DNA of 32,000 bases from Candidatus Omnitrophota bacterium (GCA_963662715.1 OY759724.1:1290001-1322000); one strand, 5' to 3'; shown: positions 1,891 through 30,598, numbered from the stretch's first letter. Notes: generated from the letters alone by a model not told the origin. Numbers and translations: made by a program.

Positions 1891-1924
1891 AAAAACAAAA
1901 AAGCCACCAAGTGGTCTTGGTAGC
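1891..1924 (-). terminator. Intrinsic terminator or attenuator hairpin
   Basis: The minus strand reads GCUACCAAG-acca-CUUGGUGGC (9-bp stem with one G-U, 4-nt loop) followed directly by UUUUUUGUUUUU. It lies 11 nt upstream of the ATG at 1880. Confidence 0.55.
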
Positions 1925-2049
1925 CCATAAAATTGCTACAAAATTTCAGAAATGCTTTCTGTTAGCAAAAATTTCATTATTCTGTTGGCCCTCTTTTTTG
2001 AAGAATTTTATAAGGCTTTTCTTACCACTTGCCTTATAAGTATAGCATT

Positions 2050-2491: not shown

Positions 2492-3379
2492 TTAACCGCC
2501 CCCAAGCTCTGCCAACGGGTTCTCTTCGATAAACTGCAGAAAGATAGGTCCCGCAACAAGGATCCCCACAACAGGGAAAATAAAGAACAACAGCGGCACC
2601 AAAAGCTTCATAGGTGCTTTCATGGCCATTTGTTCACCCCTGCGGAATCTCGCAAGACGCATATCTTCGGAGAGGAGATTTAAGGCTTCGGAAACAGATG
2701 TTCCCATCTTGTCTGCCTGCAACAGCGTTCTGGAGAAAGAAGAAACCTCCGAAAGGTCAAACTTTGACGCAAGGTCCTTCAGGGCATCTCTTCGAGTCTT
2801 TCCAACATTGATTTCCTGCAGCAAAATGTTAAGCTCATTAACCATAACCGAAGGGGTGGACTTTTCAACAACCCATTTGAGGGCCAACATAAAGTCCAAA
2901 CCAGCATTCACACAGAGCCCCAACAAGTCAATGGCGTTCGGAAGCTCTTTGACAATAATAGCCTTAACTTTTTTTATCTTTCCTTTTAGCCAGAATTCCG
3001 GCATCATATAACCGACAGAAAAACTCATAAACAGCCAAAAAAGTATCATATCCGGCTGAATCATCTGAAACGTCAACAACAACACCAAAACAATGCCGAC
3101 TTCTTTCATCAAGAAAAATTCTTCCGGAGTCATATTCACATGCCCCACAGACAAATCCTTGGAGATTCTTTTTCTTAAGCCTCCAACACAAAGAGGCTTA
3201 TTAATCATAGCCAAGCCCCTAATGAGAGATGTTGTGCTTTTTTTCTTTTTTGCCGGGGTGACCTCGTAGCCAAATGTTTTTAAAGTTGGTCGGCTTTCTA
3301 TGTCTACCGGAAAAATACCCATAATAAAACTGAAACCCGCCAAGAAACACATCGTTAATAAAAATGTCAACATTACCAT
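2492..3379 (-). CDS. tadC: Tad pilus inner-membrane platform protein TadC (T2SSF domain)
   Basis: 295 aa. T2SSF-type core: ELPNAIDLLGLCVNAGLDFMLALKWVVEKS...LQEINVGKTRRDALKDLA...SEALNLLSEDMRLARFRRGEQMAMKAPMKLLVPLLFFIFP. SD AAGGAAGG upstream of the ATG. It is the second of two adjacent T2SSF paralogs. Confidence 0.88.
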   Translation of the reverse strand: MVMLTFLLTMCFLAGFSFIMGIFPVDIESRPTLKTFGYEVTPAKKKKSTTSLIRGLAMINKPLCVGGLRKRISKDLSVGHVNMTPEEFFLMKEVGIVLVLLLTFQMIQPDMILFWLFMSFSVGYMMPEFWLKGKIKKVKAIIVKELPNAIDLLGLCVNAGLDFMLALKWVVEKSTPSVMVNELNILLQEINVGKTRRDALKDLASKFDLSEVSSFSRTLLQADKMGTSVSEALNLLSEDMRLARFRRGEQMAMKAPMKLLVPLLFFIFPVVGILVAGPIFLQFIEENPLAELGGG

Positions 3380-3415: not shown

Positions 3416-4270
3416 TTAAAAATCTTTAAAGCTACTGATTTTGAAAATCATAACAGCGCCTACAATTTCCGAAATAACGGCATAAACAAGCATCCCCCTT
3501 CCGACCGGAGATTGAAACATATGGTCAAAAAACGTGGGATTCGTTCCATAAATGATCGTAAAAAACATAACAGGCAAAGCCGACATAACAACTCCCTGTA
3601 TTTTTCCCTGGATAGTCAATGTGTCTATCTGGGATTTGATCCTTTTCTGCTCCCGGATAACATTAACAATGCGCTGAAAAATACTCGGCAGGTTCCCGCC
3701 CGTTTCTCTTGCGAGCAGAATTGCTGTCGTCATCTGCTGAACGGCTGCTGATGGCTGGCGGTTATATAAATGGTTCAGGGCTTCATCCAAAGAAACCCCC
3801 ATATTATTTTCCCCCAAAACAATGGAAAACTCCTGATTTATAGGATCCGGCATTTCTTCCACAACGGCTTCCATGGCTTGCACCAAGCTTAAGCCTCCGC
3901 GAAAAGAGCTGGACATAATCATCAAGGCGTCTATAAGCTGATCATCAAATTTTTTCCGATTTTGATTTATAAGAAGGTTGTTGTAAACCCCTGGGAATAT
4001 TAAACCGAAAACAATACCAATCCCGATACCAAAAACCCTTAAGTCTTCGGGGAAAAAGATGTAAAAAATACCGGAAAAAAGGATAGGGGCAATAACATAA
4101 AAACGGGTAATCTTTTCCACTTTGGACCGTGGAAGAACCCTGTCCAATCTTGAAGAAAGCTTATGAGCTCTCTTTTGCCCTATTTCCACTGTTTTGTCAT
4201 ATAGCAACGGAATAACAAAATAGCCAAACAAAGCGGCTGAAATAAATATGCAGAAAAAAGATACGTACAT
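3416..4270 (-). CDS. tadB: Tad pilus inner-membrane platform protein TadB (T2SSF domain)
   Basis: 284 aa. LIDALMIMSSSFRGGLSLVQAMEAVVEEMPDPINQEFSIVLGENNMGVSLDEALNHL...ARETGGNLPSIFQRIVNVIREQKRIKSQIDTLTIQGKIQG is a typical TadB/T2SSF pattern. SD GAGGAGG. Confidence 0.88.
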   Translation of the reverse strand: MYVSFFCIFISAALFGYFVIPLLYDKTVEIGQKRAHKLSSRLDRVLPRSKVEKITRFYVIAPILFSGIFYIFFPEDLRVFGIGIGIVFGLIFPGVYNNLLINQNRKKFDDQLIDALMIMSSSFRGGLSLVQAMEAVVEEMPDPINQEFSIVLGENNMGVSLDEALNHLYNRQPSAAVQQMTTAILLARETGGNLPSIFQRIVNVIREQKRIKSQIDTLTIQGKIQGVVMSALPVMFFTIIYGTNPTFFDHMFQSPVGRGMLVYAVISEIVGAVMIFKISSFKDF

Positions 4271-4308: not shown

Positions 4309-4734
4309 CTATAAAATCACATCCGCACAAAGATCGCCTTCCGCAGTGTCTTCGGAACAGCCTTCCAGGCAAGAGAGACAGTCGGTTATATATTCAGGCG
4401 TTCCTACCGGAACCGTACAATCACACCCATGATCACTATAACATTCCTTGGAAATCCATTTATTAATCAATGTACACGGCCTTGTCGGTCCTGTTGCCGC
4501 AGTACAATGAGCTGCGTCAAAAAAACATTCCAGCGTGCCCCCGGCATCTCCATCTGTCCCGTAAGGACGAGGATCGTATTGCCTGCCTGACCCAAAAACA
4601 TCGCCTGCTTTTTTCCAGCCCCCGGCATAGGCTCTTATGATATAATTTTGAAAGACAAAAATGGCTGTTATCAAAAAAACCATTAATGTCATATATTCCA
4701 TAATAGACTGGGCTTCTCTGTTTCTTTTTAACAT
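4309..4734 (-). CDS. Pilin-like protein with a class III signal peptide and a Cys-rich C-terminal domain (candidate minor pilin)
   Basis: 141 aa. N-terminus MLKRNREA|QSIMEYMTLMVFLITAIFVF. It shares the GRQYDPR motif with the pilin paralogs. By my count there are 10 Cys in the last ~75 aa. Confidence 0.75.
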   Translation of the reverse strand: MLKRNREAQSIMEYMTLMVFLITAIFVFQNYIIRAYAGGWKKAGDVFGSGRQYDPRPYGTDGDAGGTLECFFDAAHCTAATGPTRPCTLINKWISKECYSDHGCDCTVPVGTPEYITDCLSCLEGCSEDTAEGDLCADVIL

Positions 4735-4769
4735 GATACTTTACCCTTTAAGCAACAAAAGCCAATTTT

Positions 4770-7700
4770 TTAGTTAGTTCCCGCAATAAACTGATCATCA
4801 CATTGATAAAACCTGATCCGGAAACTCTGCAGCCCGCTATATCCTCCTCCCCCGCCTCCTAAATAATACTGGGCACAGGAAGTGGTTACATATCCATATC
4901 TTAGAAGGCTTTCATGAATGAAATCCCAACAATCCTTATACTGGGCATCGCCTCTGGGATATCCCGCGCTGGCTGTGGGGGTCCGATTTATCATAAAGGC
5001 GTTTTTCCAGCCCCATTCCCAAGACGTTCCGGCAATATTCGGATCAATCATAATGCTACAGGTCAATTCCAGGTCCGTGGGATCATTATCCTGGCCTTCC
5101 GGATGATAAAACATGGGCTTCCACAGCCGTGTGCCGTTTGCGAAATTAATATTTCCGCTAACAGAATCTTCGTCATAACGAATGACCATGGCTTTGACCC
5201 GGCCGGTCCTCTCTTGCAGTTCATAACAACGCTTTGTTCCCCAATCCTTGGTCCAGGTTTTTATCCACGGCCATCTGTCTGTTCCGCAAGCACCATTACA
5301 CCGCCCCGGAGATCTGACTGTCACTTTAACAACATGCCAGTCTCCTCTGATTGTGTTGTAGACATCCTTGGGTTCGTCCTGCCATGCGTAAATAGCAAAA
5401 GACGTTGTCGCCGGAGGATAAAGGTTGTCCCAGCTTTTACAGGCATCTATCACCGCCTGGGCCGGACCGGTAAGAAAATTGTTTATCTGGAGCAACCCAT
5501 TAAATAACTGGTTGGTTATCTCCTCCGCTTCGTCCCTGCGACCGGTAAGCAGATTAACCCGTTTCTCTATCTTGGCCGCCTGATTTTGAGCAGCCAAAAC
5601 ACTCCAGTCTAGCAAATCTTTCCATCCTCCGGGATCTGTGTCTCCGCAGGACCCTACAGAGTTTTCCAAAGCGGTGCCGACAGCATCAAAAAATGGGGTT
5701 GCGCCATAACCGCAGGTTTCCTCACAGGTTCCCAAGACGCCCACTCCGGCCCAGGTACAGGAGCAGTTCAAAAGCTCTGATTCAATCGTAGCGCTGGCGC
5801 AGTTAATGGTGGTGGACTGGTCGCGGCACTGATTTGTCAAAGTGCCCGTAGGGTTTGCTATACAAAAATCGTACATATTATTTATTTTTGTTAAAACATT
5901 GTCATCCGGCGGAACAGCCGGAGGATCCGGAGTATCATCCGTAGCGGTGAAAGCCGGGATACCGTAACCTCCCGGCAACACGGCGCATTCAATATTACAG
6001 GTATAAATATTCGTGGTTCCGTAGCATTCGTCCAACTCTAAAAGATCATTCGGATCCCCTGCCACAGTATAAGTCATCTCATCAAAACCCGGGACAAGAG
6101 ACCGGGGCAACACCTGGCAGGAAGATATCGAGGCCGCGATATCATTATCGCAATCCCACTTGCAGGCATCAAATTTTTCCGCATTCCCCTGGGCTTGTGC
6201 CCCGGTAGCGCCTGAAATAATAGCGTTTCCGCTGGCATCCTGGGCCAAATCAGCAAGGTTCCAATCTAGACAAGCGATAATATCTTCCAAATCTCCTCTT
6301 GTGCCGTTTCCGTTAAAATCAAAAACAGCCTGTTCTTCCTGGCTGACCCCCGGACATTCAAGGCCATCATAACCAGCCTGAAAACCGACATACGCTGGAT
6401 CCGCATATTTATTAGCTGCCCCCTGCGGAGGCGGGACACACCAGACAGCCGGGGTGGCGGCAGAACTGTCAATTTTACAGCCTGATCCGACATATGGAAC
6501 CGTAGGCTCCATCCATTCCACAATAGGCTGATAAAAAGAATTCAAATCATCCCGCCAGACATACCAGTATCCTCCGTCCTCGTTCCCCGTACAGCTGGAA
6601 CCGCAAGCCGAAGGATCGCCCCCCGGACACGGGGCTTCAAACCAATCCGCAAAGCCGCCGCTTCCTGTGGCGGCCAGACCAATTTCGTACCAATCTATAA
6701 AATTATCTTCAATCTCATCCGGATCCAGTTTGTATTGTTCCATGGCCCAACTATAAAATTCCGTAAGTCCGTAAATAAAGTCATCCAGCTTGTCATCCGG
6801 CCAGTTTGACCAGACATATTGCCAGTTTGTGCCTGCCGCAGGCGCAACCGGAGGATAAGGATCCAGGGCTCCGCCCTCCCCGCAATTACAATCCACGCCA
6901 TACACAGTTCCATCTTCCGGATCAACTTCAGTACAATTGACGCCGTTCCCGGCTTTGACACATTCTGCCATATAGGGCCATTCATCCGGAGGATCACAGA
7001 ACAGGTCCGCTCCTCTTTTCCAGCCGCCCTCATCCTGCGCACATTCCGAATCTTCCGCTAAAATATCATCAATATTAGGGACCAAATCCAACAATTGCGG
7101 CGGATCCGTAAAATCAGACCCCATATTTGTGGCATCAACACACCACCCACCGCTATACGGAGCATCATCCGGAGTGTTAGGAAGAATCAAGGCCGGGGAA
7201 ATCTCGGCAGGGAAGGTCAGCCCCGTACACTCAACGGGAACATCTCCCGTAGGCGGAAGTCCGGTAGGGTCACAGAGATGACATTCCAGGTCGTCCCTGT
7301 TCGGTAAGGCCAAGGCCCCGTAAGTTAATTCCTGTAAATTCATGCCCCAATCGTCAAGCTTATAAAAAAACGGAAAGATCCCAAGCCGGTCATCCGTGGA
7401 ATAAAAACCCGTGGCGTCTTCCATATAAAAATCATATTCTGCTTGAGGCCGGAGCAATTGCGAATGATCCGCAACCGTCCCGCTGCCGTCAATAAGCAGA
7501 TGCCATTGAGGCCTTGCCGAATTCACTTCATACTGATGATGAGTATCATCCTCTCCAATCCATTCCCTGAAGGAAATAAATTCCTGTCCGGTTGAATTGT
7601 TGGTGGAGTCTTCATAAAAGCCTTGATATACATAAGGATAAGAAACAGCCAAATTAGGCGCCACCGGCGGCAACGGGTCATGAAAAGGCGACCTGTTATA

Positions 7701-8729
7701 ACACGTGTTCGGATCGCCTCCGGTAAAGCCTTCATCCGCGATACAGCTTCCTGTCGCGCAACATGCCGGGCGAAACGCCGAGTCCACGCAGCAGGGATCA
7801 CACATCGAAGGGAAACGGTTGTCCGTCGTAGGGCTGATAGGGCAACAGGGATGGGTCGGATTCCCTTCGCAATCTAAAGGATCAAACAATCCCCAGTTGT
7901 CTGTATCATAAGAATTGTCGCCTCCGTATAAAAAATCTCCCAAAGAATCCAAGAATTGTTCAACAACATTGGAATTGTTGTCCTGAATCCCCTGCAATCG
8001 GCGCGTATAATAATAAGCAAATCTGGAGACATAATCTGGAGCCGTTGTTCTGTCAAGAGGATCTGACAAATCACCAAAAGCCGTATCCGTATCCATATCA
8101 AATAAATCGGGAATTTGCGCCGGATCAGTAACCGCAGACATTAAAGCCGTCTGTATCCCGTATTCTATAGCCATTTCTTTCGTGGTCAGGGAATCGGACA
8201 TCATTTTGTTCCACATCGATGTGATCCCCGGCTGAGTAACCGTGACATCTATAACCGCCGCAGCAATAACCAAAACCGCGGCCACAATCGCAGCCGCTAA
8301 TCCCCACCCCTCTATCTGCCCCGTTGCCGCGCAAACCACGACAAGGACAATAACAATAATGGCGGCAATGAGTTTGACAAGAAAGCCGGTCCAGGCACAA
8401 ATTTTCGTTTTGCCTCCCAAAGAAGTCATATACAGCATTTGTCCGTAACTGGCAATAAAGGAAGCCATTTTGCTTGCGGCTGTATTAGCCCCGATGATCG
8501 TTAAGGTCTTTCCCGAAGAAATTTTCCCGATGTTAATGGTGGCGGCATATAAAATTAAGCCAATGGCCGCTGCCAGAATAAGAATTAAACCGACTTGTCC
8601 TGCAATATGTCTGGGAGGGTTTCTTTTGGAAGAAAAAGAATCTTCCGGTCCCATACGATCATCGCCATAAAAATACCGGCTCTGCTGCTTGCGAATTTTC
8701 TTAAACCATTTATGGACACGTTGAAACAA
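4770..8729 (-). CDS. Giant (1319 aa) TadG-like protein: TadG/Tad_N-type N-terminal anchor, two more TM helices, and a ~1150-aa Cys/Asp/Pro/Gly/Trp-rich exported domain
   Basis: Single uninterrupted ORF. TTG start at 8729 is preceded by AAGGGGA at SD distance. N-terminus HIAGQVGLILILAAAIGLILYAATINIG resembles the TadG-type N-terminal helix. I count about 51 Cys, including CC pairs (HPCCPIS, DPCCVD, PACCATGSC). I recognise no other domain. Confidence 0.8.
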   Translation of the reverse strand: MFQRVHKWFKKIRKQQSRYFYGDDRMGPEDSFSSKRNPPRHIAGQVGLILILAAAIGLILYAATINIGKISSGKTLTIIGANTAASKMASFIASYGQMLYMTSLGGKTKICAWTGFLVKLIAAIIVIVLVVVCAATGQIEGWGLAAAIVAAVLVIAAAVIDVTVTQPGITSMWNKMMSDSLTTKEMAIEYGIQTALMSAVTDPAQIPDLFDMDTDTAFGDLSDPLDRTTAPDYVSRFAYYYTRRLQGIQDNNSNVVEQFLDSLGDFLYGGDNSYDTDNWGLFDPLDCEGNPTHPCCPISPTTDNRFPSMCDPCCVDSAFRPACCATGSCIADEGFTGGDPNTCYNRSPFHDPLPPVAPNLAVSYPYVYQGFYEDSTNNSTGQEFISFREWIGEDDTHHQYEVNSARPQWHLLIDGSGTVADHSQLLRPQAEYDFYMEDATGFYSTDDRLGIFPFFYKLDDWGMNLQELTYGALALPNRDDLECHLCDPTGLPPTGDVPVECTGLTFPAEISPALILPNTPDDAPYSGGWCVDATNMGSDFTDPPQLLDLVPNIDDILAEDSECAQDEGGWKRGADLFCDPPDEWPYMAECVKAGNGVNCTEVDPEDGTVYGVDCNCGEGGALDPYPPVAPAAGTNWQYVWSNWPDDKLDDFIYGLTEFYSWAMEQYKLDPDEIEDNFIDWYEIGLAATGSGGFADWFEAPCPGGDPSACGSSCTGNEDGGYWYVWRDDLNSFYQPIVEWMEPTVPYVGSGCKIDSSAATPAVWCVPPPQGAANKYADPAYVGFQAGYDGLECPGVSQEEQAVFDFNGNGTRGDLEDIIACLDWNLADLAQDASGNAIISGATGAQAQGNAEKFDACKWDCDNDIAASISSCQVLPRSLVPGFDEMTYTVAGDPNDLLELDECYGTTNIYTCNIECAVLPGGYGIPAFTATDDTPDPPAVPPDDNVLTKINNMYDFCIANPTGTLTNQCRDQSTTINCASATIESELLNCSCTWAGVGVLGTCEETCGYGATPFFDAVGTALENSVGSCGDTDPGGWKDLLDWSVLAAQNQAAKIEKRVNLLTGRRDEAEEITNQLFNGLLQINNFLTGPAQAVIDACKSWDNLYPPATTSFAIYAWQDEPKDVYNTIRGDWHVVKVTVRSPGRCNGACGTDRWPWIKTWTKDWGTKRCYELQERTGRVKAMVIRYDEDSVSGNINFANGTRLWKPMFYHPEGQDNDPTDLELTCSIMIDPNIAGTSWEWGWKNAFMINRTPTASAGYPRGDAQYKDCWDFIHESLLRYGYVTTSCAQYYLGGGGGGYSGLQSFRIRFYQCDDQFIAGTN

Positions 8730-8759
8730 GGATTTTCCCCTTTTTTAATGTTATATATT

Positions 8760-9065
8760 TTAAGGGATTTCTTCTCCAAAAATATTACTGTTAACCGTGG
8801 CATTAATCTGGGTGGCTGAGTAAAACATCGGTCTCGTTTGCTCTAACGGCCCGCCGGAATCATTCGTACTTATAGGAGACTCCAGAATAGCTTCGTGCCG
8901 GACAAATCTTTTTATCAAATCTGAACCTGTCCACGCAAAAACCTGAATCATGCCCACGATCAACAAAACGACACCTATCATTCCGAACATAAATTCCAGG
9001 GTAACCTGTCCTGGCCATTTGATTTTAACCAAATTTTTTTGAAAAAATTTTCTATTTTTCATCAT
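8760..9065 (-). CDS. TadE-like pseudopilin
   Basis: 101 aa. MMKNRKFFQKNLVKIKWPG|QVTLEFMFGMIGVVLLIVGM has the TadE-type G|QxxxEF N-terminus. Confidence 0.75.
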   Translation of the reverse strand: MMKNRKFFQKNLVKIKWPGQVTLEFMFGMIGVVLLIVGMIQVFAWTGSDLIKRFVRHEAILESPISTNDSGGPLEQTRPMFYSATQINATVNSNIFGEEIP

Positions 9066-9092
9066 TATAACTGATTATTCCGTAGCTATAAA

Positions 9093-10832
9093 TTATGGGG
9101 CAAAACGGCGTATCCAGCGCCGCCCTCTTAAATCACTTATACGGCTCCGCACATACAATATATAGCTGTCCCGGTCAAAACACGTAAGCTGAATAATCCC
9201 CGGATCAAAACATGTCGTTCCTGTGCTGGGACGGGAACAGGCTTCAACAGGGTTTTCTATCCCGTAAAGACCATTGCTCCTGGCCCAGGCCGTTGTTCCC
9301 CAGTCCCGGGGTGTAACATCGTTTGAACAAAACCTGCCTGAATCTCTCGTAAGCTGCAGCTGCCGCTCAACCACATCCAGCTGGTCGTGTCTCTCTGTGC
9401 TGCGGGAAAACTGTCCGGGAATGGCCGCCGGCATGATATTTTCCCCTTCTTCAACCCTTAAATAAGCCCCCTGCCCGGTTGTCTGGCCTGGGTCAGAGGA
9501 CGTAATCGTATATATCTGGGTGTCATCGGAAAATCCTGCCGACTGCTCAAGACAGCGCCAATTAGAACATATTCCCGCCCCATTATTGCCGGTTGCTGTG
9601 CTTCCGATCGTACAATTCCCGCTCGGTGCCGCACCGCAGGCCCCTCCGACAGTCCCGGCAAATCTCCATTCCCCGGGCATGCGAGCGTCTTCCATAAACG
9701 AACTGTTCAGATCTCCTTCCTGGCTATCCACAACGTAAAGCGTTCGAATAACTCCCGAACTCAAAACACTATAATTTAATATTGTTTCTTCAAAATAATC
9801 CCCGTCACAATCAATTTGAGAGTTCTCCGGAGAGTCCTCCCCGCTGGGATCAACAAAAATCCCCTGGACCCCGCCCCACGGCAACCCGGGTGTGGCCGTC
9901 CCGTTTCTTACGCCGGCAATCAAAAACCATTGCCAAAAAAAACCGTCCCGGTCTCCCGCCGGAACATCTGAAACTCCGTCAAAATCCAAATCAAAACGGA
10001 TATCCTGGGGAAGATTGGAGCAATCCTTAACGCAGACGCTCCCAAAACAGCATTTTTTGCTTTTCGGATAATTCCCGACAATGGTAAATATAACCGTACA
10101 CCCGGCATTGCTGGAAACGATATCATAATCCCCGGTTCCCGGGCCACCGGTGGCCAAAACACATTCATTCATATAGCCCATCTCATAATCCCCGTTGTTA
10201 TACCCGACAAAAACGCACGTATCATAAGATACGCAGTCGCTCCACCAGCACATGCCATACGGCGGATCATTGGGCGGGGCATTGTTATTGAAAAATGCCG
10301 GACCTGATTCGTTGCAGGGCGGAATCCAGGCCGGCCTTCCGCCGCTTGCCGTTGCCAGCGTAATAGTCTTAAAATCAGAAACAAGTAAAGGAATTCTTTG
10401 GCCGTTTATAAATAAATCTGACAAAGGAAGGTCATAGCGGTCGCCATAGTCTGTCGGACGGAATAAATTTTTGCTATGTGTGGCCGAAGCTGAAGCAGAA
10501 ACAGGAAACCGGTCTTTTGTCCCGAACTTGCTCCCGGCGGTTATGCTTATCCTGTCCTCCAGAATAACAACCGAAGCTCCTGTCCTGGCGTTAGCCCCGT
10601 CTTTGCCGGTTGAAAAATTAACATATTCTCCTTCCGTGGTGCGATAAGACTCGCTCAAAGCCAGACGTAAAGCACGCAATTGCAGGTTGTTCTGCATACT
10701 GGCTTGCACGCCGGCTTTAATGATAGAACCAATGATAAAAATTAATAAAGCTCCGAAAATAGCCAATTCCGTGCCTGATTGAGCTATCACAGACCGTTGT
10801 CGAGGCGTATTTTTTCTCTTTAGAAACATCAT
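9093..10832 (-). CDS. Large (579 aa) Cys-rich TadE/TadF-like pseudopilin
   Basis: N-terminus MMFLKRKNTPRQRSVIA|QSGTELAIFGALLIFIIGS (TadE-like). The remainder is Gly/Asp/Cys-rich (about 19 Cys by my count) with no domain I recognise. Confidence 0.75.
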   Translation of the reverse strand: MMFLKRKNTPRQRSVIAQSGTELAIFGALLIFIIGSIIKAGVQASMQNNLQLRALRLALSESYRTTEGEYVNFSTGKDGANARTGASVVILEDRISITAGSKFGTKDRFPVSASASATHSKNLFRPTDYGDRYDLPLSDLFINGQRIPLLVSDFKTITLATASGGRPAWIPPCNESGPAFFNNNAPPNDPPYGMCWWSDCVSYDTCVFVGYNNGDYEMGYMNECVLATGGPGTGDYDIVSSNAGCTVIFTIVGNYPKSKKCCFGSVCVKDCSNLPQDIRFDLDFDGVSDVPAGDRDGFFWQWFLIAGVRNGTATPGLPWGGVQGIFVDPSGEDSPENSQIDCDGDYFEETILNYSVLSSGVIRTLYVVDSQEGDLNSSFMEDARMPGEWRFAGTVGGACGAAPSGNCTIGSTATGNNGAGICSNWRCLEQSAGFSDDTQIYTITSSDPGQTTGQGAYLRVEEGENIMPAAIPGQFSRSTERHDQLDVVERQLQLTRDSGRFCSNDVTPRDWGTTAWARSNGLYGIENPVEACSRPSTGTTCFDPGIIQLTCFDRDSYILYVRSRISDLRGRRWIRRFAP

Positions 10833-10847
10833 GATAAAAGTATGAAG

Positions 10848-11156
10848 TTAATAAGCGGCAACCGTCGTAGAGCCGAATTTTTCTTCTAACATATTAGAAT
10901 TATCGTCCCGCATAGTCCAGACACCGCCATTAACAGGAATTGTTTCGATAACTGTTGATTGAAACCCCTGCACTCTTTCTGTTATATCCGTATTTGTTAC
11001 CCGGGGATCATATTGATCCCCCATCCCGTCAACAGCCTCTTTCCATCGTCCCTGGACCCCTCGTTTAAAATATGTCCCTATCCCCAAGAAAACACCTAAA
11101 ATTATCGTAATTAACGCTAAATATTCTAAAGAACTCTGTCCTTTTAATAACTTCAT
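10848..11156 (-). CDS. Flp-like pilin paralog (102 aa), class III signal peptide
   Basis: MKLLKG|QSSLEYLALITIILGVFLGI, then YFKRGVQGRWKEAVDGMGDQYDP. SD GAGGGAG. Confidence 0.82.
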   Translation of the reverse strand: MKLLKGQSSLEYLALITIILGVFLGIGTYFKRGVQGRWKEAVDGMGDQYDPRVTNTDITERVQGFQSTVIETIPVNGGVWTMRDDNSNMLEEKFGSTTVAAY

Positions 11157-11187
11157 TCTTGCGCTCCCTCAAAATACTGGTTAATGA

Positions 11188-11520
11188 TTAGTCATATCGA
11201 AAGCCAAGATTTGTTGACGTCGCCGTGATCGTTCTCGAATTGGTCCCGTCATAAATATAAGAAACTTCCCCTAAATTTTCTCTCGTACGCTTTACGGTTA
11301 CAGACGTGACATCCGTGGTTTGTTCATCAAGCTGTCCGTCTAGCCCGCCGGGCTGTTCCGCGTCAGTCTGATTACCTATCTGATCAGCAACAACTTTAAT
11401 CATCCCCTGTGCGCCTCGTCGTAATAAGGGGGTGAAAGAAACAAGAACTGCCACCACTGTACTTACTAGCATAGCATATTCTAAAAAGGTTTGAGCAGAT
11501 TTCTTAGTCTTTTTACTCAT
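11188..11520 (-). CDS. Flp-like pilin paralog (110 aa), class III signal peptide
   Basis: MSKKTKKSA|QTFLEYAMLVSTVVAVLVSF, then LLRRGAQGMIKVVADQIGNQ. No obvious SD. Confidence 0.78.
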   Translation of the reverse strand: MSKKTKKSAQTFLEYAMLVSTVVAVLVSFTPLLRRGAQGMIKVVADQIGNQTDAEQPGGLDGQLDEQTTDVTSVTVKRTRENLGEVSYIYDGTNSRTITATSTNLGFRYD

Positions 11521-11549
11521 AATAAAAAAATTTTTTAAATACAGTAAGT

Positions 11550-11975
11550 TTAATCCGCATAAGCAGGGGCTAACTGCATCTGATTGGTAATACCGCTCAT
11601 CGTATGATCAAATATTTGTGTGACAATTCCCGACCCCAAAGGATAAGCCCCTTCCTCTGTCATGAGGGTCGTATCTTCTTGATACTTAATCGACAAAGAA
11701 TTTGAGTAATAAGGCTCGTATTGATAACGGAAAGTCCCCGGATAATCGGCCCGCACCGTGCTGGCCATATGGTGTAAGGCATCCAGAGTCCTCCCCTGCA
11801 GAATACGCCGGACATAAGTCGCCATCGTCGTTATAATAGCTACAACCAAGAAAAAGGTTGTCGCATATTCAACGAATAAATTTTGCCCTTTTTTATTCAG
11901 TTTCATATCCAAGGTTTCTGTTTTATTAATAAAGTATGGCTTACCCGAAAGCTTTTTCCCCCTCAAGTAAGCCAT
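11550..11975 (-). CDS. Flp-like pilin paralog (141 aa as tracked, 118 aa if started at ATG 11906)
   Basis: MKLNKKG|QNLFVEYATTFFLVVAIITTM, then YVRRILQGR...YQYEPYY. The start is ambiguous (11975 or 11906) and neither has a clear SD. Confidence 0.72.
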   Translation of the reverse strand: MAYLRGKKLSGKPYFINKTETLDMKLNKKGQNLFVEYATTFFLVVAIITTMATYVRRILQGRTLDALHHMASTVRADYPGTFRYQYEPYYSNSLSIKYQEDTTLMTEEGAYPLGSGIVTQIFDHTMSGITNQMQLAPAYAD

Positions 11976-12024
11976 ACTTTATTCAGCTTAAAAAAATTCT
12001 GGTTTTATTATCTAAACTAAAATA

Positions 12025-12345
12025 TTAGCCCCAGAATTCGTTTTCAGCGTTGATCAGAACTTGGTTCGCCAATGTCTCGGTAACTTCATCCGTGTTCAAA
12101 GATGTCGTAGAAACACCATAGCTGAATGCTTCAGCAGTATTACTTACAGTTGAAACCATTCTACGGACATTGGTGTTACCTGGTGAATATTGGTCACCGA
12201 TATCATCTGTTGCACTCTTTAATCTACCCTGCACACCTCTCTTAATATAAACCTGGATAGATAAAAGAGCACCGATAACGATAATAATCAAGACGGCGTA
12301 CTCTAAAGTACTTTGCCCTTTTATTTTTCTTAGAAACTTAAACAT
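12025..12345 (-). CDS. Flp-like pilin paralog (106 aa), class III signal peptide
   Basis: MFKFLRKIKG|QSTLEYAVLIIIVIGALLSI, then YIKRGVQGRLKSATDDIGDQYSP. SD AGGAGGA. Confidence 0.85.
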   Translation of the reverse strand: MFKFLRKIKGQSTLEYAVLIIIVIGALLSIQVYIKRGVQGRLKSATDDIGDQYSPGNTNVRRMVSTVSNTAEAFSYGVSTTSLNTDEVTETLANQVLINAENEFWG

Positions 12346-12397
12346 TGAAAATTCCTCCTTAAAATACAGATTTCTATTACACTAAATTATCTGGATC

Positions 12398-12772
12398 TTA
12401 GATGCTATTCAACACACCAAACGCAGAATCATAATTTGATCTCTGGAAACCACCTGTTCCACGAGTTCTGTTGCTAGTTGTATCTAACTGGAACAACCCG
12501 CTGGCATCTGCTCTTTGGGTTTGAACTTCGAGTTCAGTATCCTGACGAAGAACATCGTAATCTGATTCAAGGTAGTAAGGTTCATATTGGTTGGTTCTAC
12601 CTAAAGCGCTTGTTGCATCTGTCAAATAAGCAGAAGCATCACGAATTCTCGCCTGAATGGTTCGTTGAGCATAAGTTTGCATAGCAATAACCGCCGCAAC
12701 AACAAGGGAAATTAACAGCGCATACTCGGCTGTTTGCTGTGCTTTTTTATTTCTAATTAACTTTCTAAACAT
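12398..12772 (-). CDS. Flp-like pilin paralog (124 aa), class III signal peptide
   Basis: MFRKLIRNKKA|QQTAEYALLISLVVAAVIAM, then YAQRTIQARIRD...NQYEPYY. SD GGAGGT. Confidence 0.82.
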   Translation of the reverse strand: MFRKLIRNKKAQQTAEYALLISLVVAAVIAMQTYAQRTIQARIRDASAYLTDATSALGRTNQYEPYYLESDYDVLRQDTELEVQTQRADASGLFQLDTTSNRTRGTGGFQRSNYDSAFGVLNSI

Positions 12773-12810: not shown

Positions 12811-13017
12811 TTACGGATTATCATAACGAGATGTTTGTAACCGATTGGCCATATCAAACATGCCATTCGTACCCGTACGTAATGTTGCATTGAATGCTGT
12901 GTTAAAAATACCAGTACTCGGGTTTAAGAAAATAATCAGAATGGCAATAACACCTGTCACCAGGATGATATACTCGAGGGTGCTTTGCCCTTTCTTTTTT
13001 CTGTTCTTGTATACCAT
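12811..13017 (-). CDS. flp: Flp-family pilin (68 aa)
   Basis: MVYKNRKKKG|QSTLEYIILVTGVIAILIIF. Classical Flp size. SD AGGAGGA. Confidence 0.85.
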   Translation of the reverse strand: MVYKNRKKKGQSTLEYIILVTGVIAILIIFLNPSTGIFNTAFNATLRTGTNGMFDMANRLQTSRYDNP

Positions 13018-13081: not shown

Positions 13082-13240
13082 TTAATCTCTGAATCCTTCT
13101 GAAATCAATTGCTGAGTTGCTTGAATAGATCTGAACACGTAGGTGCTCATGGCCAACATAGCTGAAGCCACTAATGCAACGACGACGGCATACTCTATAA
13201 TATTTTGACCGTTCTCATACCTTAACCTTTTATGCCTCAT
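13082..13240 (-). CDS. flp: Flp-family pilin (52 aa from ATG 13240; the track start 13288 is a TTG artefact)
   Basis: MRHKRLRYENG|QNIIEYAVVVALVASAMLAM. Strong SD GGAGGTG sits 8 nt upstream of ATG 13240. First gene of the pilin array. Confidence 0.85.
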   Translation of the reverse strand: MRHKRLRYENGQNIIEYAVVVALVASAMLAMSTYVFRSIQATQQLISEGFRD

Positions 13241-13582: not shown

Positions 13583-13612
13583 AGTATATCATAATATACA
13601 ACAAAATGTCAA
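13583..13612 (-). promoter_or_regulatory. Sigma70-type promoter for the pilin array
   Basis: The minus strand reads TTGACA (13612-13607), 18 nt, TATACT (13588-13583), with an extended -10 (TGaTATACT). Confidence 0.5.
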
Positions 13613-13642: not shown

Positions 13643-15352
13643 TTACCGTCGAGAAAAAATCTTTATCATCAAGCGTCTTCCTTGAAAATCAACGATATTT
13701 CTTTCATTAATTCTGGAGGCCGCGGATATCAAATCCTCCAGGCAGGCATAATCATTATCGGGCATCAATAAAACCTGAATGTTGTTTTCGTCAGTATTTA
13801 TGGTGCCGTTTAAAGGGGTAATGATGTCCATGAGATCAACAGGTAAAAGACTTTTCTTTCCCGAGGAGAAATACGTTTGCCATGAAAAATTTGCCAGCAA
13901 ATTTTTTGCTCTTTGGATAATATTTTCAAAATTTTTGTTAGTATTAATATTAATTTTATAAGTATTAGTAATTAAAGAAATAAGAGGTTGCGCCTCTTTA
14001 GAAATAATTTTACCAACAGAATAATTAAAACCTCTTTGTAAATTTGGCCATCGGGCATAATATGAATAAACTACGTCATGAGCGCTCATCAAATCCTGAG
14101 GGGCATTGGTCAGGACCAGCCCAAAAGGAGCGGAAGCCTTGTTTTCCCTTAAGGGAAAAATCCTCAATCCCAGGCGGGGCTGAAAATCATCTTCCAGCGG
14201 AATCGTGGTAAAATATTCTGAATAATAAAGATTTTCATCGAAAAAAATATCTACCAGCTTTTCTACCTTACTTGTCCTTATTGACCGGATTAACGGTTGG
14301 AATTCTGGCTGCCATGGCCACAAACAGGAAATAAAGTATCTTTTTTTCTGAGGAATAACATCAAACAGGGCAATTTCATCTCCATTCACATCCAATAAAA
14401 AGATTCTCTTTAATCTCTTTCCCGCTTTGTTTTCAAAAGAAGCGCATAAATCTAAAAATTGTTTTGCGCAATACGCTTTTTGAGACAGGTTTTCTGACAC
14501 ATCCAAGATTGGACAAAAACAAAAAACTGCAGATTGGACATTGTTTATTATTTGATCGAAAACCACTCTGGTTGAATTGTTTACAGTGTTATAAAATGGC
14601 AAATCTAACTTTTTTGTCCAAACTGAACTCATCTCCACATCCAGCAACAAATCCGAATCATCTTCCAACTCCAAACGAATAAAAGCAACTTTTGTCATAC
14701 AATACTGAGCATCGACCACAAGCTGAACCACGGCATCGTCCCAATCATCAATCGTGTTCAATCTTTCTAATACCCCTTCCACATCTATTATTCGCTTATC
14801 TTTTTGTGTTAATATTTTCTCCCACAGATCAGCAGAGATATCTGTTTTATTAAAAAATTCCTTAAAAACCAATCGTTCAACCAAACTTTTTATCTGAATT
14901 TCATCCAAAAAAGAAATTCGCCCCTTGAGCAATTCAGCTAAAAGGGAATGATTTGACATTTCCCATTCCGCAGATTTAATAAAAACATAGCCAATATCAT
15001 CAACAAGCTCCTTCCCCTTGCTGGGAGGAGCAGGGAGCTTTAACAAATCTTCGGAAGAATCAAAAGGCTTCAACAAAGCCAAACTGTCACTTCGTATCAA
15101 TTTTTTCTTTCTCCTTCTCTTTACCGTCTTCTTGCGGGGCTTCTCAGAAAGCTGTCTTCTTCCTACAGGGCTGTTAAGATGCGCTTCCTTTAAAATAGCG
15201 CTAATAGAAGACTTGGAGACCATTATATGATAATTCTGTTGAACTAAATCGGACAGTTTTCGACAGCTTAAGGCAGGATTAGCCGCTTTTTCGGCTAAGA
15301 TAAAATCGATCACTTGAGTTGTAAGTTTATATACGACACCCATTGAAAACAC
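13643..15352 (-). CDS. Hypothetical 569-aa protein with an N-terminal helix-turn-helix and a basic KR-rich segment. The rest is unrecognised.
   Basis: Long clean ORF. GTG start at 15352 or ATG at 15343; no SD at either. The N-terminus (VIDFILAEKAANPALSCRKLSDLVQQNYHIMVSKSSISAILKEAHL) looks like a winged-helix/transposase-type HTH and is followed by EKPRKKTVKRRRKKK. I see no DDE or other catalytic signature. Confidence 0.7.
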   Translation of the reverse strand: MFSMGVVYKLTTQVIDFILAEKAANPALSCRKLSDLVQQNYHIMVSKSSISAILKEAHLNSPVGRRQLSEKPRKKTVKRRRKKKLIRSDSLALLKPFDSSEDLLKLPAPPSKGKELVDDIGYVFIKSAEWEMSNHSLLAELLKGRISFLDEIQIKSLVERLVFKEFFNKTDISADLWEKILTQKDKRIIDVEGVLERLNTIDDWDDAVVQLVVDAQYCMTKVAFIRLELEDDSDLLLDVEMSSVWTKKLDLPFYNTVNNSTRVVFDQIINNVQSAVFCFCPILDVSENLSQKAYCAKQFLDLCASFENKAGKRLKRIFLLDVNGDEIALFDVIPQKKRYFISCLWPWQPEFQPLIRSIRTSKVEKLVDIFFDENLYYSEYFTTIPLEDDFQPRLGLRIFPLRENKASAPFGLVLTNAPQDLMSAHDVVYSYYARWPNLQRGFNYSVGKIISKEAQPLISLITNTYKININTNKNFENIIQRAKNLLANFSWQTYFSSGKKSLLPVDLMDIITPLNGTINTDENNIQVLLMPDNDYACLEDLISAASRINERNIVDFQGRRLMIKIFSRR

Positions 15353-16038: not shown

Positions 16039-16386
16039 TTACGCCTGCTCCAGGAAAAGCTGGTCCCCCTTTGCTGTGCGAGAAGAATCGATCACTCCGA
16101 CAGGAAGTTCTATGGCCTTTTGTGCGGTAATATAGTAAGGGCTCATACGGAATGGCTTAATATTCCGAACTACTCCGACAACAACGTTTCGCTTGTTTAC
16201 AAAAATAACATCTATAGAAAAACGCATAAAAAACATGTGGATCGACCGGCACTGTGTAATAATCAATGCTTCCTGAGATTCTATAGAAGTCCGGTTCAAT
16301 AACCCAACAAGTCTTGATACAGCCGTATCGGCAAGATCTGCCTTTTCAGCAATAATAGTATTTTTGGTCTGATTGATTATCTTCAC
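16039..16386 (-). CDS. DUF192 (COG1430) family protein
   Basis: 115 aa. CRSIHMFFMRFSIDVIFVNKRNVVVGV...AIELPVG matches the DUF192 core pattern (IHTFFMRFPLDVvFld). The start is 4 nt after the tadZ-tadA stop. Confidence 0.75.
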   Translation of the reverse strand: MKIINQTKNTIIAEKADLADTAVSRLVGLLNRTSIESQEALIITQCRSIHMFFMRFSIDVIFVNKRNVVVGVVRNIKPFRMSPYYITAQKAIELPVGVIDSSRTAKGDQLFLEQA

Positions 16387-16390
16387 GCGA

Positions 16391-18547
16391 TTAGGAAGGT
16401 TTTGTAAAGATCGTCTTATCTATGGAGAGGCCCATAGTTATAAAATCGTTAAAACTTTGCGGAGTATATCCCGTAGCTTCGTATTCCCCAACAATGATTC
16501 CGTTTTCATCGATGCCTTTTTGGTTAAAAATAAAAATATCCCGCAAATCAAGAGCGTGTTCAATCGTCAAACCAACAACTTCTGTGATCCCGGTAATTTT
16601 CCTTGAACCGTCAGAAAATCTGGCAACATGAACAATAAGATCAATGGCTGAAGAGATCATTTCATTAATGGCCCGAACCGGCAATTCAATTCCGCTCAAC
16701 AAGATCATTGAGCTCATGCGGACGAGAACGTCACGCGTGGAGTTGGCATGCAATGTTGTCATAGATCCGTCATGCCCCGTATTCATGGCCTGTAACATAT
16801 CAAGAACTTCCGGCCCGCGACATTCACCAATGATAATACGATCAGGCCGCATACGAAGAGAGTTGATAAAAAGATCCCGGATGGAAACGGCTCCTTTGCC
16901 TTCAATGTTGGTCGGTCGTGACTCCAGCCGTCCCCAATGGCTTTTTTTCAGCCTTAATTCAGCGGCGTCTTCTATGGTAATAATTCTTTCATTGTCCGGA
17001 ATGAACTGAGAAATAACATTAAGCAAGGTCGTTTTTCCAGAACCGGTTCCTCCGGAAACTATAATATTTTTTCTGGCAAGAACGCTGGCCTGCAAAAACT
17101 CCCTCATGGTCTTGGTAAAACTGCGGTATCTTTGCTCCAGGTCTTCCACGTCCAAGCGTTCAGCGCCAAATTTACGAATCGTAATCATCGGCCCGTTTAA
17201 TGAAAGAGGAGGGATGATAGCATTGAAACGGGAACCGTCGGGAAGACGGGCGTCCACCATCGGGGTGGATTCGTCAATTCGGCGTCCGAGCGGGGCGATA
17301 ATACGGTCAATAATGGCTCTCATTTGTTGTTCGGAAACGAATTTCTTATTTGTATAAATAAGCTTCCCGTGTTTTTCAATATACAGTTCATCCTTATTGT
17401 TAGCCATGATGTCGGAAACATCCGGATCCGCTAAAAATTCTTCAAGGGCCCCGAGCCCCAAAGCCTCGTCAACAATTTCTTTTACTAATCGCCGTCTTTC
17501 CTCGTGGGAAGAGATCATCGCGCCTTTTTCTTCTATCAATAAATTGCTGACAATCTTTCTTGCGTCGTCCTTCAGTTCCGCGGCTTTAATGGGGTCGCTT
17601 AGGTTGTCCGGGCTCAAATCTTCAATATTAAGACGGCCGACCAGTTTTTCATGTATTCTTCTTTTAAGAGAAATAATCTCGTCTTCTTCCTTTTCAAAAA
17701 CACCGCCCGGAAGATATTGCGGCGTGATGCCAAATTTTTCCCAAAACTTTCCTGGCTTATCTAATCCTTCTGTTGTTCTTTCCCGCTCAATTTCAAAAGC
17801 TTGAACAAAAAGATCCTCTTTCTTCAAATCATTGACCATGCGGTTAAACGCATCTGTAACCTGACTTTTGGGAGAATCGATAACGACCGGGACGCCCCGA
17901 TTCAAGGCCATACCCACGGCACGGCCGTCAGAAGGGATACGTGAAAATATCTCACAGGCTAACGCTGACCGGACTTCCTGCCAGGCAACGCCGCCGCGAC
18001 TCTCCGACCGGTTAAGAACCAGCTTAACCATTTTAAGAGGAAAATGAAGGCTTTGCAGCATTTCTAAACACCATTTCACCTGATAAACAGCCAAAACATC
18101 CGGAGTGGCCACTAAAAAGATCACGTTAGAGTGATCCAGAACGGTTAACATTGTTTCGCTAAAAGATTTTCCGACATCAACAATAACAAAGTCGTAGACT
18201 TGCCCGACTTTTCTAAAAAACGGCTTGATGTTATCAGAGGAGACATGACCAACTTGTTTTGTGTGAAGCACTCCCGGAAGAAAATCCAACCCGCTTGAAT
18301 GCGAGCTTACATATTTTTTTATAACACCGGCTTCTTCGCTTTTTTCAATTTCAGCCAAAAGATCCACCAAGCCATGCCTGGGGGCAAGATTCAACATCCG
18401 GGCCATGTCGTGCGCCGCCTGAAAATCCATATCAAGCAACAGAACTCTTTTTCCAGATAAAGCAAGAACCGTGGCCATATTAACAGAAACAAAGGTTTTC
18501 CCAACACCACCTTTATTGCTAAAGACTGTAATGATTTTTGAACTCAT
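16391..18547 (-). CDS. tadA: Fused TadZ/CpaE-like (MinD/ParA-type) ATPase domain and TadA/CpaF secretion ATPase (718 aa)
   Basis: aa 1-~255: VFSNKGGVGKTFVSVNMATVLALSGKRVLLLDMDFQ...YDFVIVDVG...VLNRSE (deviant Walker A, CpaE/TadZ-type). aa ~300-718: CpaF-type domain with LGLGALEEFLADPDVSDIMAN, ARLPDGSRFNAIIPPLS, Walker A VSGGTGSGKTTLLN, IITIEDAAEL, RPDRIIIGECRG and GHDGSMTTLHAN. Confidence 0.92.
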   Translation of the reverse strand: MSSKIITVFSNKGGVGKTFVSVNMATVLALSGKRVLLLDMDFQAAHDMARMLNLAPRHGLVDLLAEIEKSEEAGVIKKYVSSHSSGLDFLPGVLHTKQVGHVSSDNIKPFFRKVGQVYDFVIVDVGKSFSETMLTVLDHSNVIFLVATPDVLAVYQVKWCLEMLQSLHFPLKMVKLVLNRSESRGGVAWQEVRSALACEIFSRIPSDGRAVGMALNRGVPVVIDSPKSQVTDAFNRMVNDLKKEDLFVQAFEIERERTTEGLDKPGKFWEKFGITPQYLPGGVFEKEEDEIISLKRRIHEKLVGRLNIEDLSPDNLSDPIKAAELKDDARKIVSNLLIEEKGAMISSHEERRRLVKEIVDEALGLGALEEFLADPDVSDIMANNKDELYIEKHGKLIYTNKKFVSEQQMRAIIDRIIAPLGRRIDESTPMVDARLPDGSRFNAIIPPLSLNGPMITIRKFGAERLDVEDLEQRYRSFTKTMREFLQASVLARKNIIVSGGTGSGKTTLLNVISQFIPDNERIITIEDAAELRLKKSHWGRLESRPTNIEGKGAVSIRDLFINSLRMRPDRIIIGECRGPEVLDMLQAMNTGHDGSMTTLHANSTRDVLVRMSSMILLSGIELPVRAINEMISSAIDLIVHVARFSDGSRKITGITEVVGLTIEHALDLRDIFIFNQKGIDENGIIVGEYEATGYTPQSFNDFITMGLSIDKTIFTKPS

Positions 18548-25147: not shown

Positions 25148-25224
25148 TGGCGACCCCAGCGGGATTTGAACCCGCGCTGCAAGCTTGAAAAGCTTGTGTC
25201 CTAACCAGGCTAGACGATGGGGTC
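25148..25224 (-). tRNA. tRNA-Glu (anticodon UUC), CCA encoded
   Basis: The minus strand reads GACCCCATCGTCTAGCCTGGTTAGGACACAAGCTTTTCAAGCTTGCAGCGCGGGTTCAAATCCCGCTGGGGTCGCCA. This folds as a cloverleaf: 7-bp acceptor GACCCCA/TGGGGTC, anticodon stem CAAGC/GCTTG with loop TTTTCAA, and T-arm GCGGG-TTCAAAT-CCCGC. Confidence 0.95.
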
Positions 25225-27760: not shown

Positions 27761-27817
27761 CTATCCGTACACCTTTCTTTGAAAACCTGTCAATAACGCC
27801 ATGTAACAAAAAAACTT

Positions 27818-30543
<2,726 letters not shown>

Positions 30544-30598
30544 AATATCATAATTATATTCAGGACCAAGGATTCTTCCCTCTAAATTTCCCCAAGAA

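Follow-up and report, generated by a model that had tools for sequence, protein, structure and literature searches.

A cysteine-rich four-gene module in the Tad operon of Omnitrophota and its probable role as a pilus priming and tip complex

Omnitrophota are widespread, mostly ultrasmall and uncultured bacteria that are suspected of being predators or parasites, and their Tad locus adjoins the largest known bacterial genes. We analyzed 32,000 nucleotides of a Candidatus Omnitrophota genome (GCA_963662715.1, OY759724.1:1290001-1322000; the whole stretch is called the window below), which hold the Tad/Flp operon of this genome. Four adjacent genes of the operon encode p579, p101, a protein of 1319 residues (the giant) and p141, and three of the four products are very rich in cysteine. 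We propose that the four proteins are probably a minor-pilin set of the TadE/F/G kind, i.e. a priming and tip complex of the Omnitrophota Tad pilus comparable to the 'Tip' of the Kil pili of Myxococcus xanthus. Judged by homologue searches, this cysteine-rich four-gene module is phylum-wide.

A four-gene module inside a Tad operon

The module and the Tad genes all lie on the minus strand, with intergenic gaps of 15-50 nt in the stretch of pilin and module genes, and this layout shows a predicted single transcript that would carry p579, p101, the giant and p141 together with seven Flp-type pilins and the platform proteins TadB and TadC. The machine belongs to the Tad class, as Pfam matches in the window include a CpaF/TadA ATPase, two TadB/TadC proteins, an RcpA/CpaC secretin and RcpC/CpaB. 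The pilin and module genes are as follows.

13082..13240, minus strand: Flp pilin, 52 residues from an internal ATG, G/QNIIEY, no cysteine (PF04964, E=1.2e-5, 25.4 bits, below the curated cut-off of 32.2)
12811..13017, minus strand: Flp-like pilin, 68 residues, G/QSTLEY, no cysteine (PF04021, Class_IIIsignal, 30.7 bits, above the cut-off)
10848..12772, minus strand: five cysteine-free pilin paralogues (124, 106, 141, 110 and 102 residues) with [GA]/Q-x-x-x-E-Y N-termini
9093..10832, minus strand: p579, extended minor-pilin-like protein of 579 residues with 19 cysteines and the prepilin-type motif A17/QSGTE22L (from the N-terminal motif, an AlphaFold2 (AF2) model and the alignment)
8760..9065, minus strand: p101, short minor-pilin-like protein, G/QVTLEF, no cysteine, conserved in every locus at this place, next to the giant and p579
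4770..8729, minus strand: the giant, 1319 residues, TTG start, 51 cysteines, a TadG/KilN analogue by operon position
4309..4734, minus strand: p141, 141 residues, A/QSIMEY ... GGWKKAGDVFGSGRQYDP, a pilin paralogue with a head of about 70 residues holding 10 cysteines

An initial annotation had singled out p579, the giant and p141 as adjacent genes with pilin-type N-termini. Its description held up when recounted: the open reading frames (ORFs), the cysteine numbers of 51, 19 and 10, the CC doublets, the three N-terminal hydrophobic segments of the giant and its GGGGGG run were all as given, and the seven structural pilins (the five at 10848-12772 and the two short Flp genes) do lack cysteine. 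The three genes proved to be part of a conserved unit of the Tad operon, of which p101 is the fourth gene.

The G/xxxxEY processing motif of Flp pilins was found in all seven pilins, and a wider pattern, [GA]/Q-x-x-x-E-[YFL] with a hydrophobic helix after it, is common to ten proteins, i.e. the seven pilins, p579, p101 and p141. The giant carries a counterpart, G/Q-[VI]-[AG]-[LIV]-[IVL], in which the glutamate at position +5 (Glu5) is missing; none of 118 family representatives with an intact N-terminus has Glu5, position +5 being Ile, Val or Leu. In a profile-profile comparison (hhalign) the N-terminal motifs of p579 and the giant aligned in register (E=0.054). All four module proteins were thereby shown to bear predicted class-III (prepilin-type) N-termini. 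In the tip complexes of type II secretion systems (T2SS) and type IV pili, the subunit that caps the filament (GspK/PilK type) is the one without Glu5. By analogy, the absent Glu5 of the giant fits what marks a tip-most subunit: the giant alone lacks this residue and would therefore need no subunit above it, which suggests the outermost position.

The module is conserved across Omnitrophota

Full-length homologues of the giant were found down to 27% identity, and the named ones are proteins of Candidatus Omnitrophota metagenome-assembled genomes. With each GTDB species represented by one genome, a scan gave 28 loci, titled either Omnitrophota/Omnitrophica or with the placeholder 'uncultured Planctomycetales'. 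A genome with the placeholder label is 66% close to the window and one labeled Omnitrophota 67%, so no weight was given to the placeholder. When 1.84 billion cluster representatives (50% identity) were searched with a profile, 435 clusters fell in the giant family at E<=1e-3, 272 of them at E<=1e-30; members are typically 1050-1730 residues long with a median cysteine content of 3.6%, and they are without annotation. No scored match was returned when the N-terminal 190 residues of the giant were used alone. The finding of full-length homologues in 28 GTDB species genomes and on many metagenome contigs rules out a frame fusion or assembly artefact, which the initial annotation had named as a way in which its reading could fail.

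Gene order was compared in six loci (L001-L006) and the 28 GTDB species loci and was fixed in about 30 independent loci. Every locus that was long enough had the same order, i.e. TadZ-TadA, DUF192, a p569-like gene, 5-8 cysteine-free pilins, p579-like, p101-like, giant, p141-like, TadB and TadC. The contrast in cysteine content was kept as well, with 36-78 cysteines in the giant, 7-30 in p579 and 8-14 in p141 as against 0-1 in the pilins.

Cysteine conservation and parity suggest disulfides

The 51, 19 and 10 cysteines of the giant, p579 and p141 are strongly enriched relative to the window's remaining 22 proteins, which average 0.55% cysteine (binomial p=1.6e-26, 1e-9 and 8e-9, respectively). 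Cysteine is also the most conserved residue class of the giant family, at 88% compared with 31-65% for other residue classes, and 26 cysteines of the giant are invariant in the 12-sequence alignment A1; the conservation of cysteine positions had been named beforehand as a point to check. The number of cysteines is even in 26 of 27 distinct mature p141 sequences and in 31 of 34 mature p579 sequences. The ectodomain of the giant gave the opposite result, with odd numbers in 77 of 84 full-length representatives, until the juxtamembrane residue C111 was added, whereupon the number became even in 75 of the 84. Total counts in these sequences range from 34 to 78.

Even parity and conservation together therefore point to structural disulfides, and the extracytoplasmic cysteines read as completely paired. 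Because parity turns even when C111 is counted, this residue reads as facing the side of the membrane on which the ectodomain lies, and it is probably stapled to the ectodomain. Two CX3C pairs of the giant (residues 856/860 and 911/915) fall in predicted helices (model residues 678-692 and 738-746), as is typical of helix-helix disulfide staples. An analysis of the joint loss of cysteine pairs was dominated by phylogeny and by whole-segment gaps and was used only for C77 and C87 of p141.

The cysteines could instead mainly ligate metals (Zn, Fe-S or other) in a redox, electron-transfer or metal-dependent role, with no disulfide knots. The giant does contain closely spaced cysteines, e.g. CxxC at residues 310 and 483, CxC at 614/616 and 989/991 and the CC doublets, and many Omnitrophota are anaerobes (PMC10066038). 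We nevertheless consider metal ligation very improbable: the domains are extracytoplasmic, no Fe-S or Zn family was matched in Pfam, the CX3C pairs follow the staple pattern, and even parity that is held while counts vary from 34 to 78 is the signature of disulfides and not of metal sites. No CxxCH motif was found in the module proteins, and the idea of a multihaem cytochrome was ruled out on this ground.

Anatomy of the giant

The giant can be divided into the following regions.

8520..8600, minus strand: residues 44-70, pilin-type hydrophobic helix, G/QVGLILIL, with Ile/Val/Leu in place of Glu at +5
8220..8408, minus strand: residues 108-170, juxtamembrane C111 and then a hydrophobic helical hairpin (transmembrane helix (TM) 2-turn-TM3) ending in QPGITSMW, conserved
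4773..8219, minus strand: ectodomain, residues 171-1319, 49 cysteines, isoelectric point (pI) 4.05 (AF2 local confidence score (pLDDT) 70.7, predicted template modeling score (pTM) 0.63)
5670..5969, minus strand: residues 921-1020, the most variable zone in the family alignment, insertion-prone and cysteine-rich; candidate target-facing region
4773..5612, minus strand: residues 1040-1319, conserved C-terminal domain with the motifs WHVVKV and KRCYEL, in the model a long helix followed by a beta-sheet

Hydrophobic segments were located at about residues 40-70, 108-145 and 137-170. In the giant family the first helix is followed by a strongly conserved loop (…AAN.AAS.MAS..ASYGQ…C), the hairpin with its Gly/Pro turn and the landmark QPGITxMW. 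The bias in composition that had been noted initially is real: the giant has 121 Asp, 121 Gly, 86 Pro, 38 Trp and 59 Tyr, and the acidity of the ectodomain reflects 176 Asp and Glu as against 59 Lys and Arg. The CC doublets lie at residues 295 (HPCCPIS), 313 (DPCCVD) and 323 (PACCATG), and the GGGGGG run starts at residue 1291. A self-comparison with BLAST revealed no internal repeats in the giant. Residues 1 to about 900 and about 1040 to 1319 align throughout the family; the zone between them, residues 921-1020, carries insertions in homologues that average 66 residues and reach several hundred. The AF2 model of the ectodomain is of mixed alpha/beta type, and its C-terminal part consists of a 51-residue helix and then a beta-sheet domain.

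Acidic loops of the DxDxDG or EF-hand type occur at residues 208-220 (P-D-x-x-D-x-D-x-D, invariant) and 804-815 (DFNGNGTRGDLE, then a helix). From their sequence these loops, and the similar ones of p579 described below, probably bind Ca2+. The second loop, DFNGNGTRGDLE, includes a conserved RGD at residues 810-812 (window positions 6294-6302; family consensus G-RGDLEDV), which probably forms part of the Ca2+ loop and not a motif of the integrin type.

The three hydrophobic helices raise the alternative that the giant is a resident protein of the inner membrane, i.e. a periplasmic base, anchor or alignment element that, for example, links platform and secretin or holds the root of the pilus, and that p579, p101 and p141 are the only minor pilins. 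All homologues conserve the three helices, and conservation of the TM1-TM2 loop, with ASYGQ and the invariant C111, suggests an interaction that is fixed close to the membrane. TadG of Aggregatibacter is also reported to be an unprocessed membrane protein. A static membrane protein would hardly be expected to retain the prepilin G-Q register together with a systematic loss of Glu5, however, and the hypervariable insertion zone and very acidic surface are more typical of an exposed domain that faces a target. In current Tad models, too, the tip position is assigned to the TadG-type protein (PMC12075869, PMC13170226). On balance we regard a resident giant as unlikely.

p579, p101 and p141

The AF2 model of p579 (pLDDT 69, pTM 0.64) has an N-terminal helix of 57 residues (residues 10-66) followed by an all-beta head, so that the modeled layout is that of an enlarged pilin. 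The combination expected of TadE and TadF, i.e. a prepilin N-terminus with Glu5 and a helix plus beta head, was thus found, the head having been modeled for p579 only. The invariant cysteines of p579 are limited to C502, C532, C541 and C551, all of them C-terminal, and its cysteine-rich inserts at residues 173-271 and 399-427 are lineage-specific. Loops of the DxDxDG type lie at residues 281-289 (DLDFDGVSD) and 341-349 (D-x-D-x-D-x-x-x-E, invariant).

Two further features of p579 were noticed. The protein of the window has 19 cysteines; of the five relatives closest to it, four have 18 and one has 20. The extra cysteine is residue 342 (window positions about 9807-9809), within the invariant loop D-x-D-x-D (IDCDGDY as against VDVDGDY), a position occupied by Val in relatives and by Ala or Leu in two of them; one cysteine is therefore left unpaired. 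Secondly, a cysteine motif of about 45 residues, CVFVG..DY..CV.A.GGPGTG.YD, in the variable insert of p579 (residues 206-250, window positions about 10083-10217) recurs in a close relative, whose giant (P0002) carries it as an insertion at residues 850-893, with 36% identity over 78 columns and E=5e-6 in a single comparison. This recurrence hints that small modules may be exchanged between tip proteins.

The alignment shows p141 to be a clear paralogue of the cysteine-free pilins: it aligns with them as far as GRWK..GD..G.QYDP, beyond which their head is swapped for a cysteine-rich one. Its family has a core of eight cysteines, seven of which are present in 30-31 of 31 sequences and the eighth, C104, in 23 of 31. 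C77 and C87 are an extra pair that occurs only together, in 6 sequences.

Weighing the tip assignment

Searches for known families and folds gave no matches for these proteins. Pfam and NCBIfam contained no domain for the giant, p579, p101, p141 or 29 further family members, and neither a domain of the von Willebrand factor A (vWA) type nor any other C-terminal domain associated with TadG was found in the giant with these databases, in line with what had first been noted. Searches of PDB sequence profiles with A1 and with the p579 alignment (A3) returned nothing. Foldseek searches with the ectodomain of the giant gave best E-values of 1.0 (PDB) and 0.07 (BFVD) and negligible TM-scores, a weak test given that the whole model is multidomain and of medium confidence; p579 was matched no better in PDB (best E 0.31, negligible TM-score), again in a whole-model search that is a weak test.

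Several results weigh against the proposed priming and tip complex. PF13400 was matched neither by the giant at E<=1 nor by 23 full-length homologues at E<=10, and PF07811 was not matched by p579, p101, p141 or family members at E<=10; as positive controls, the TadG-related protein and TadE of a Sinorhizobium meliloti plasmid hit these families with E-values of 1.1e-11 and 5.3e-17, respectively. With hhalign, A1 met the S. meliloti TadG-related protein over 13 columns in the right register, non-significantly (E=0.62), and the comparison of A3 with TadE was also non-significant. The second and third hydrophobic helices of the giant are conserved, should hinder its extraction from the membrane and are not present in known minor pilins. 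No prepilin peptidase (TadV/CpaA, A24-type) was found among the ORFs of the window; one elsewhere in the genome is possible. The AF2 models are moderately confident (pLDDT about 70), and the binomial p=4e-14 for the parity of the giant overstates independence, since the sequences are related to each other.

Membership of the TadG and TadE families was therefore not established, and the terms 'TadG-like' and 'TadE-like' of the initial annotation were not supported as family labels. What links the module to these proteins is position, N-terminal pattern and architecture. By position the giant corresponds to TadG: it is the largest pilin-like gene of the tad operon, it lies beside minor pilins, and its N-terminus is hydrophobic and without Glu5. 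By analogy the module would be the functional counterpart of TadE/TadF/TadG, of CpaJ/K/L of Caulobacter and of KilL/M/N of Myxococcus, and its display on the pilus may be inferred. The original idea of a disulfide-knotted tip or adhesin was thus upheld in part: conservation of cysteine, parity and loss of Glu5 agree with it, while the restriction of invariant cysteines in p579 to four and the three helices of the giant do not. The extra hydrophobic hairpin of the giant falls outside the tip model and is a distinctive feature for which current tip models make no provision.

In the proposed priming and tip complex, the N-terminal helices would insert the module proteins in the inner membrane, and the heads would fold in the periplasm, where they would be locked by about 25 disulfides in the giant (one of them the staple between C111 and the ectodomain), about 9 in p579 and 5 in p141. 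The priming complex would then assemble on the TadB/C platform, Flp pilin would be polymerized on it by the TadZ-TadA ATPase, and the complex would be pushed through the secretin to become the distal tip. The giant would be outermost, and its acidic variable region (residues about 921-1020) would be exposed and could bind the surface of a host or prey. We also considered a more far-reaching version, in which the giant would represent a new class of tip protein, i.e. a fully disulfide-locked, Ca2+-loaded 'harpoon head' of about 125 kDa and novel fold, its three helices replacing several alpha1N in the cap and its variable zone setting host or prey specificity, and in which the Tad machine and tip would act physically with the adjacent surface proteins of 10,000-60,000 residues in attachment or predation. 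As a whole this version seems rather unlikely.

Machine genes and flanking features

The remaining features of the window are listed from its right end.

25307..31699, minus strand: gyrA, gyrB, dciA and dnaN, at the right end of the window
25151..25224, minus strand: transfer RNA (tRNA) gene, followed by gyrA, gyrB, dciA and dnaN
21678..22697, minus strand: SurA-like peptidyl-prolyl isomerase (PPIase; Rotamase_2), upstream of CpaB
20870..21673, minus strand: RcpC/CpaB (RcpC, E=2.7e-23)
18740..20776, minus strand: secretin (Secretin, E=1.5e-40) with a C-terminal TonB_C domain (E=2.6e-14)
16391..18547, minus strand: TadZ-TadA fusion of 718 residues, a ParA/MinD-type AAA_31/CbiA domain plus a TadA/CpaF ATPase (T2SSE, E=6.7e-59)
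16039..16386, minus strand: DUF192 (COG1430) gene (Pfam)
13643..15352, minus strand: 569-residue protein, no Pfam family, conserved in every locus, where DUF192 lies on one side and the pilin genes on the other
13583..13612, minus strand: best sigma-70-like promoter match (TTGACA-18-TATACT, 11/12, TG), a consensus match only, 5' of the first Flp gene; candidate operon promoter
3416..4270, minus strand: TadB-like platform protein (Pfam T2SSF)
2492..3379, minus strand: TadC-like platform protein (Pfam T2SSF)
1901..1926, minus strand: strong terminator-like hairpin (11-bp stem and T-run), a consensus match only, 3' of TadC; candidate operon end
2-1492, minus strand: C39 ORF (Peptidase_C39, E=2e-7) with a glycine-zipper segment, which starts about 1 kb downstream of TadC and runs off the start of the window

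The presence of the C39 ORF bears on a third alternative, namely that the machine is a T2SS-like pseudopilus piston and not an adhesive pilus, and that its cysteine-rich tip, as an analogue of GspK-I-J, engages the super-giant protein encoded downstream of TadC and expels or presents it. An ORF resembling a C39 peptidase does begin at about 1492 on the minus strand and run off the window, its equivalent is open to the end of the locus in at least 19 related loci (called lengths 9,516-60,566 residues), and West-Roberts et al. (bioRxiv 10.1101/2023.11.21.568195) reported a conserved 'T2SS-like' locus that lies upstream of giant genes in Omnitrophota. Against this, the machine is built from genes of the Tad type (CpaB/RcpC, a fusion of TadZ and CpaF, a pair of TadB/C paralogues and Flp pilins), and seven pilin genes, including the 52-residue Flp, suggest a real filament. 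Moreover, proteins of tens of thousands of residues that have many transmembrane segments and SecA-like domains of their own are unlikely cargo for a secretin (bioRxiv 10.1101/2023.11.21.568195), and the terminator-like hairpin separates the two operons. We consider a pseudopilus quite improbable.

The called lengths of the super-giant equivalents are 60,566 residues in L004, 25,316 in L002 and 9,516 in L006, and the C39 ORF corresponds to what West-Roberts et al. (bioRxiv 10.1101/2023.11.21.568195) describe as giant genes with C39 first. The stretch of about 1 kb between TadC and the C39 ORF (1493-2491) holds no convincing ORF and nothing was found there with Rfam, which detected the single tRNA and nothing else in the whole window. 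Promoter-like sites lie in this gap near 2050-2079 on the minus strand, and gaps of similar size (0.6-0.9 kb) separate TadC and the C39 ORF in related loci.

Among the machine genes, the TadZ-TadA fusion is kept at 720 residues in most related loci, the secretin-TonB_C fusion was also seen in L004-L006, and the DUF192 gene directly follows TadZ-TadA in every related locus. The N-terminus of the 569-residue protein has a weak likeness to helix-turn-helix regions of the transposase type (IS481 model, E=0.003); its gene is immediately followed by the best promoter-like site, so this protein may regulate the pilin/tip operon. The Rotamase_2 protein, which is the conserved PPIase that West-Roberts et al. 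(bioRxiv 10.1101/2023.11.21.568195) described, may assist the large heads to fold in the periplasm. Finally, gyrA, gyrB, dciA and dnaN at the right end of the window place the Tad locus near the replication origin; the Tad locus of V. archaeovorus LiM has the same near-origin placement, at 12-30 kb of the genome (PMC10066038).

Comparison with known systems

A Tad or 'T2SS-like' locus upstream of giant genes has already been described in Omnitrophota (Seymour et al. 2023, PMC10066038; West-Roberts et al. 2023, bioRxiv 10.1101/2023.11.21.568195). The locus of the window is the one described there, as it shares the gspD/E/F-like genes, rcpC, the Rotamase_2 PPIase, small genes with class-III signal peptides and the downstream C39 giant ORF. 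Neither paper (PMC10066038, bioRxiv 10.1101/2023.11.21.568195) mentions the cysteine-rich four-gene module, the remaining proteins being called 'less well conserved'. What the analysis adds is the module as a likely pilus tip, its distribution across the phylum and the pinpointing of a variable, putatively exposed zone. The module offers targets for work on host specificity, on the structural biology of what is probably a new fold and on antibodies or labels for contacts between Omnitrophota and their hosts.

With the tips of T2SS (GspK-GspI-GspJ) and of type IVa pili (PilY1), the module shares a tip-most subunit without Glu5 and a large head unlike that of a pilin. Ca2+-binding loops matter for the function of PilY1 (PMC8833165), and the DxDxDG/EF-type loops of the module recall them. 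Unlike these tips, the module belongs to a different class of pilus, matches them in neither sequence nor fold, and has no detected beta-propeller or GspK alpha-domain.

The resemblance to TadE/F/G and to Caulobacter CpaJ/K/L, for which a platform-bound priming complex has been modeled (PMC13170226), lies in a Tad operon with the genes beside TadB/C, in hydrophobic N-termini of the prepilin type, in the presence of one large TadG-type member and in the proposed assembly of a priming complex on the platform. Unlike TadE/F/G, the module proteins have no Pfam match and no vWA domain, their heads are 3-10 times larger and contain 3-7% cysteine, and the giant has three hydrophobic helices. The statement that the proteins are far outside the canonical TadE/F/G range was too strong, given that there are known tip proteins of the TadG type that are large and have many predicted disulfides, as in KilN, or extra domains, as in CpaL (PMC12075869, PMC13170226).

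The closest parallel is provided by the Kil Tad pili of M. xanthus, which carry interchangeable KilL/M/N tips made of a short pilin, an extended pilin and the large KilN, whose distal domain is of unknown fold with many predicted disulfides (Herrou et al. 2025, PMC12075869). Herrou et al. proposed that TadE/F/G act likewise elsewhere, while with their hidden Markov models tip1-4 turned up in Myxococcota only (PMC12075869). As in the Kil 'Tip', adjacent Tad minor-pilin genes of a putative predator encode a short, an extended and a large subunit with a variable distal region and predicted disulfides, for which pilus priming and contact with prey are proposed. The Omnitrophota module differs in having four genes and not three, a larger giant that is denser in cysteine, an extra hydrophobic hairpin and a different phylum as host, and its neighbor is a super-giant ORF where that of Kil is the T3SS* partner. 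The module therefore extends the idea of an adaptable Tad tip from Myxococcota to a distant phylum.

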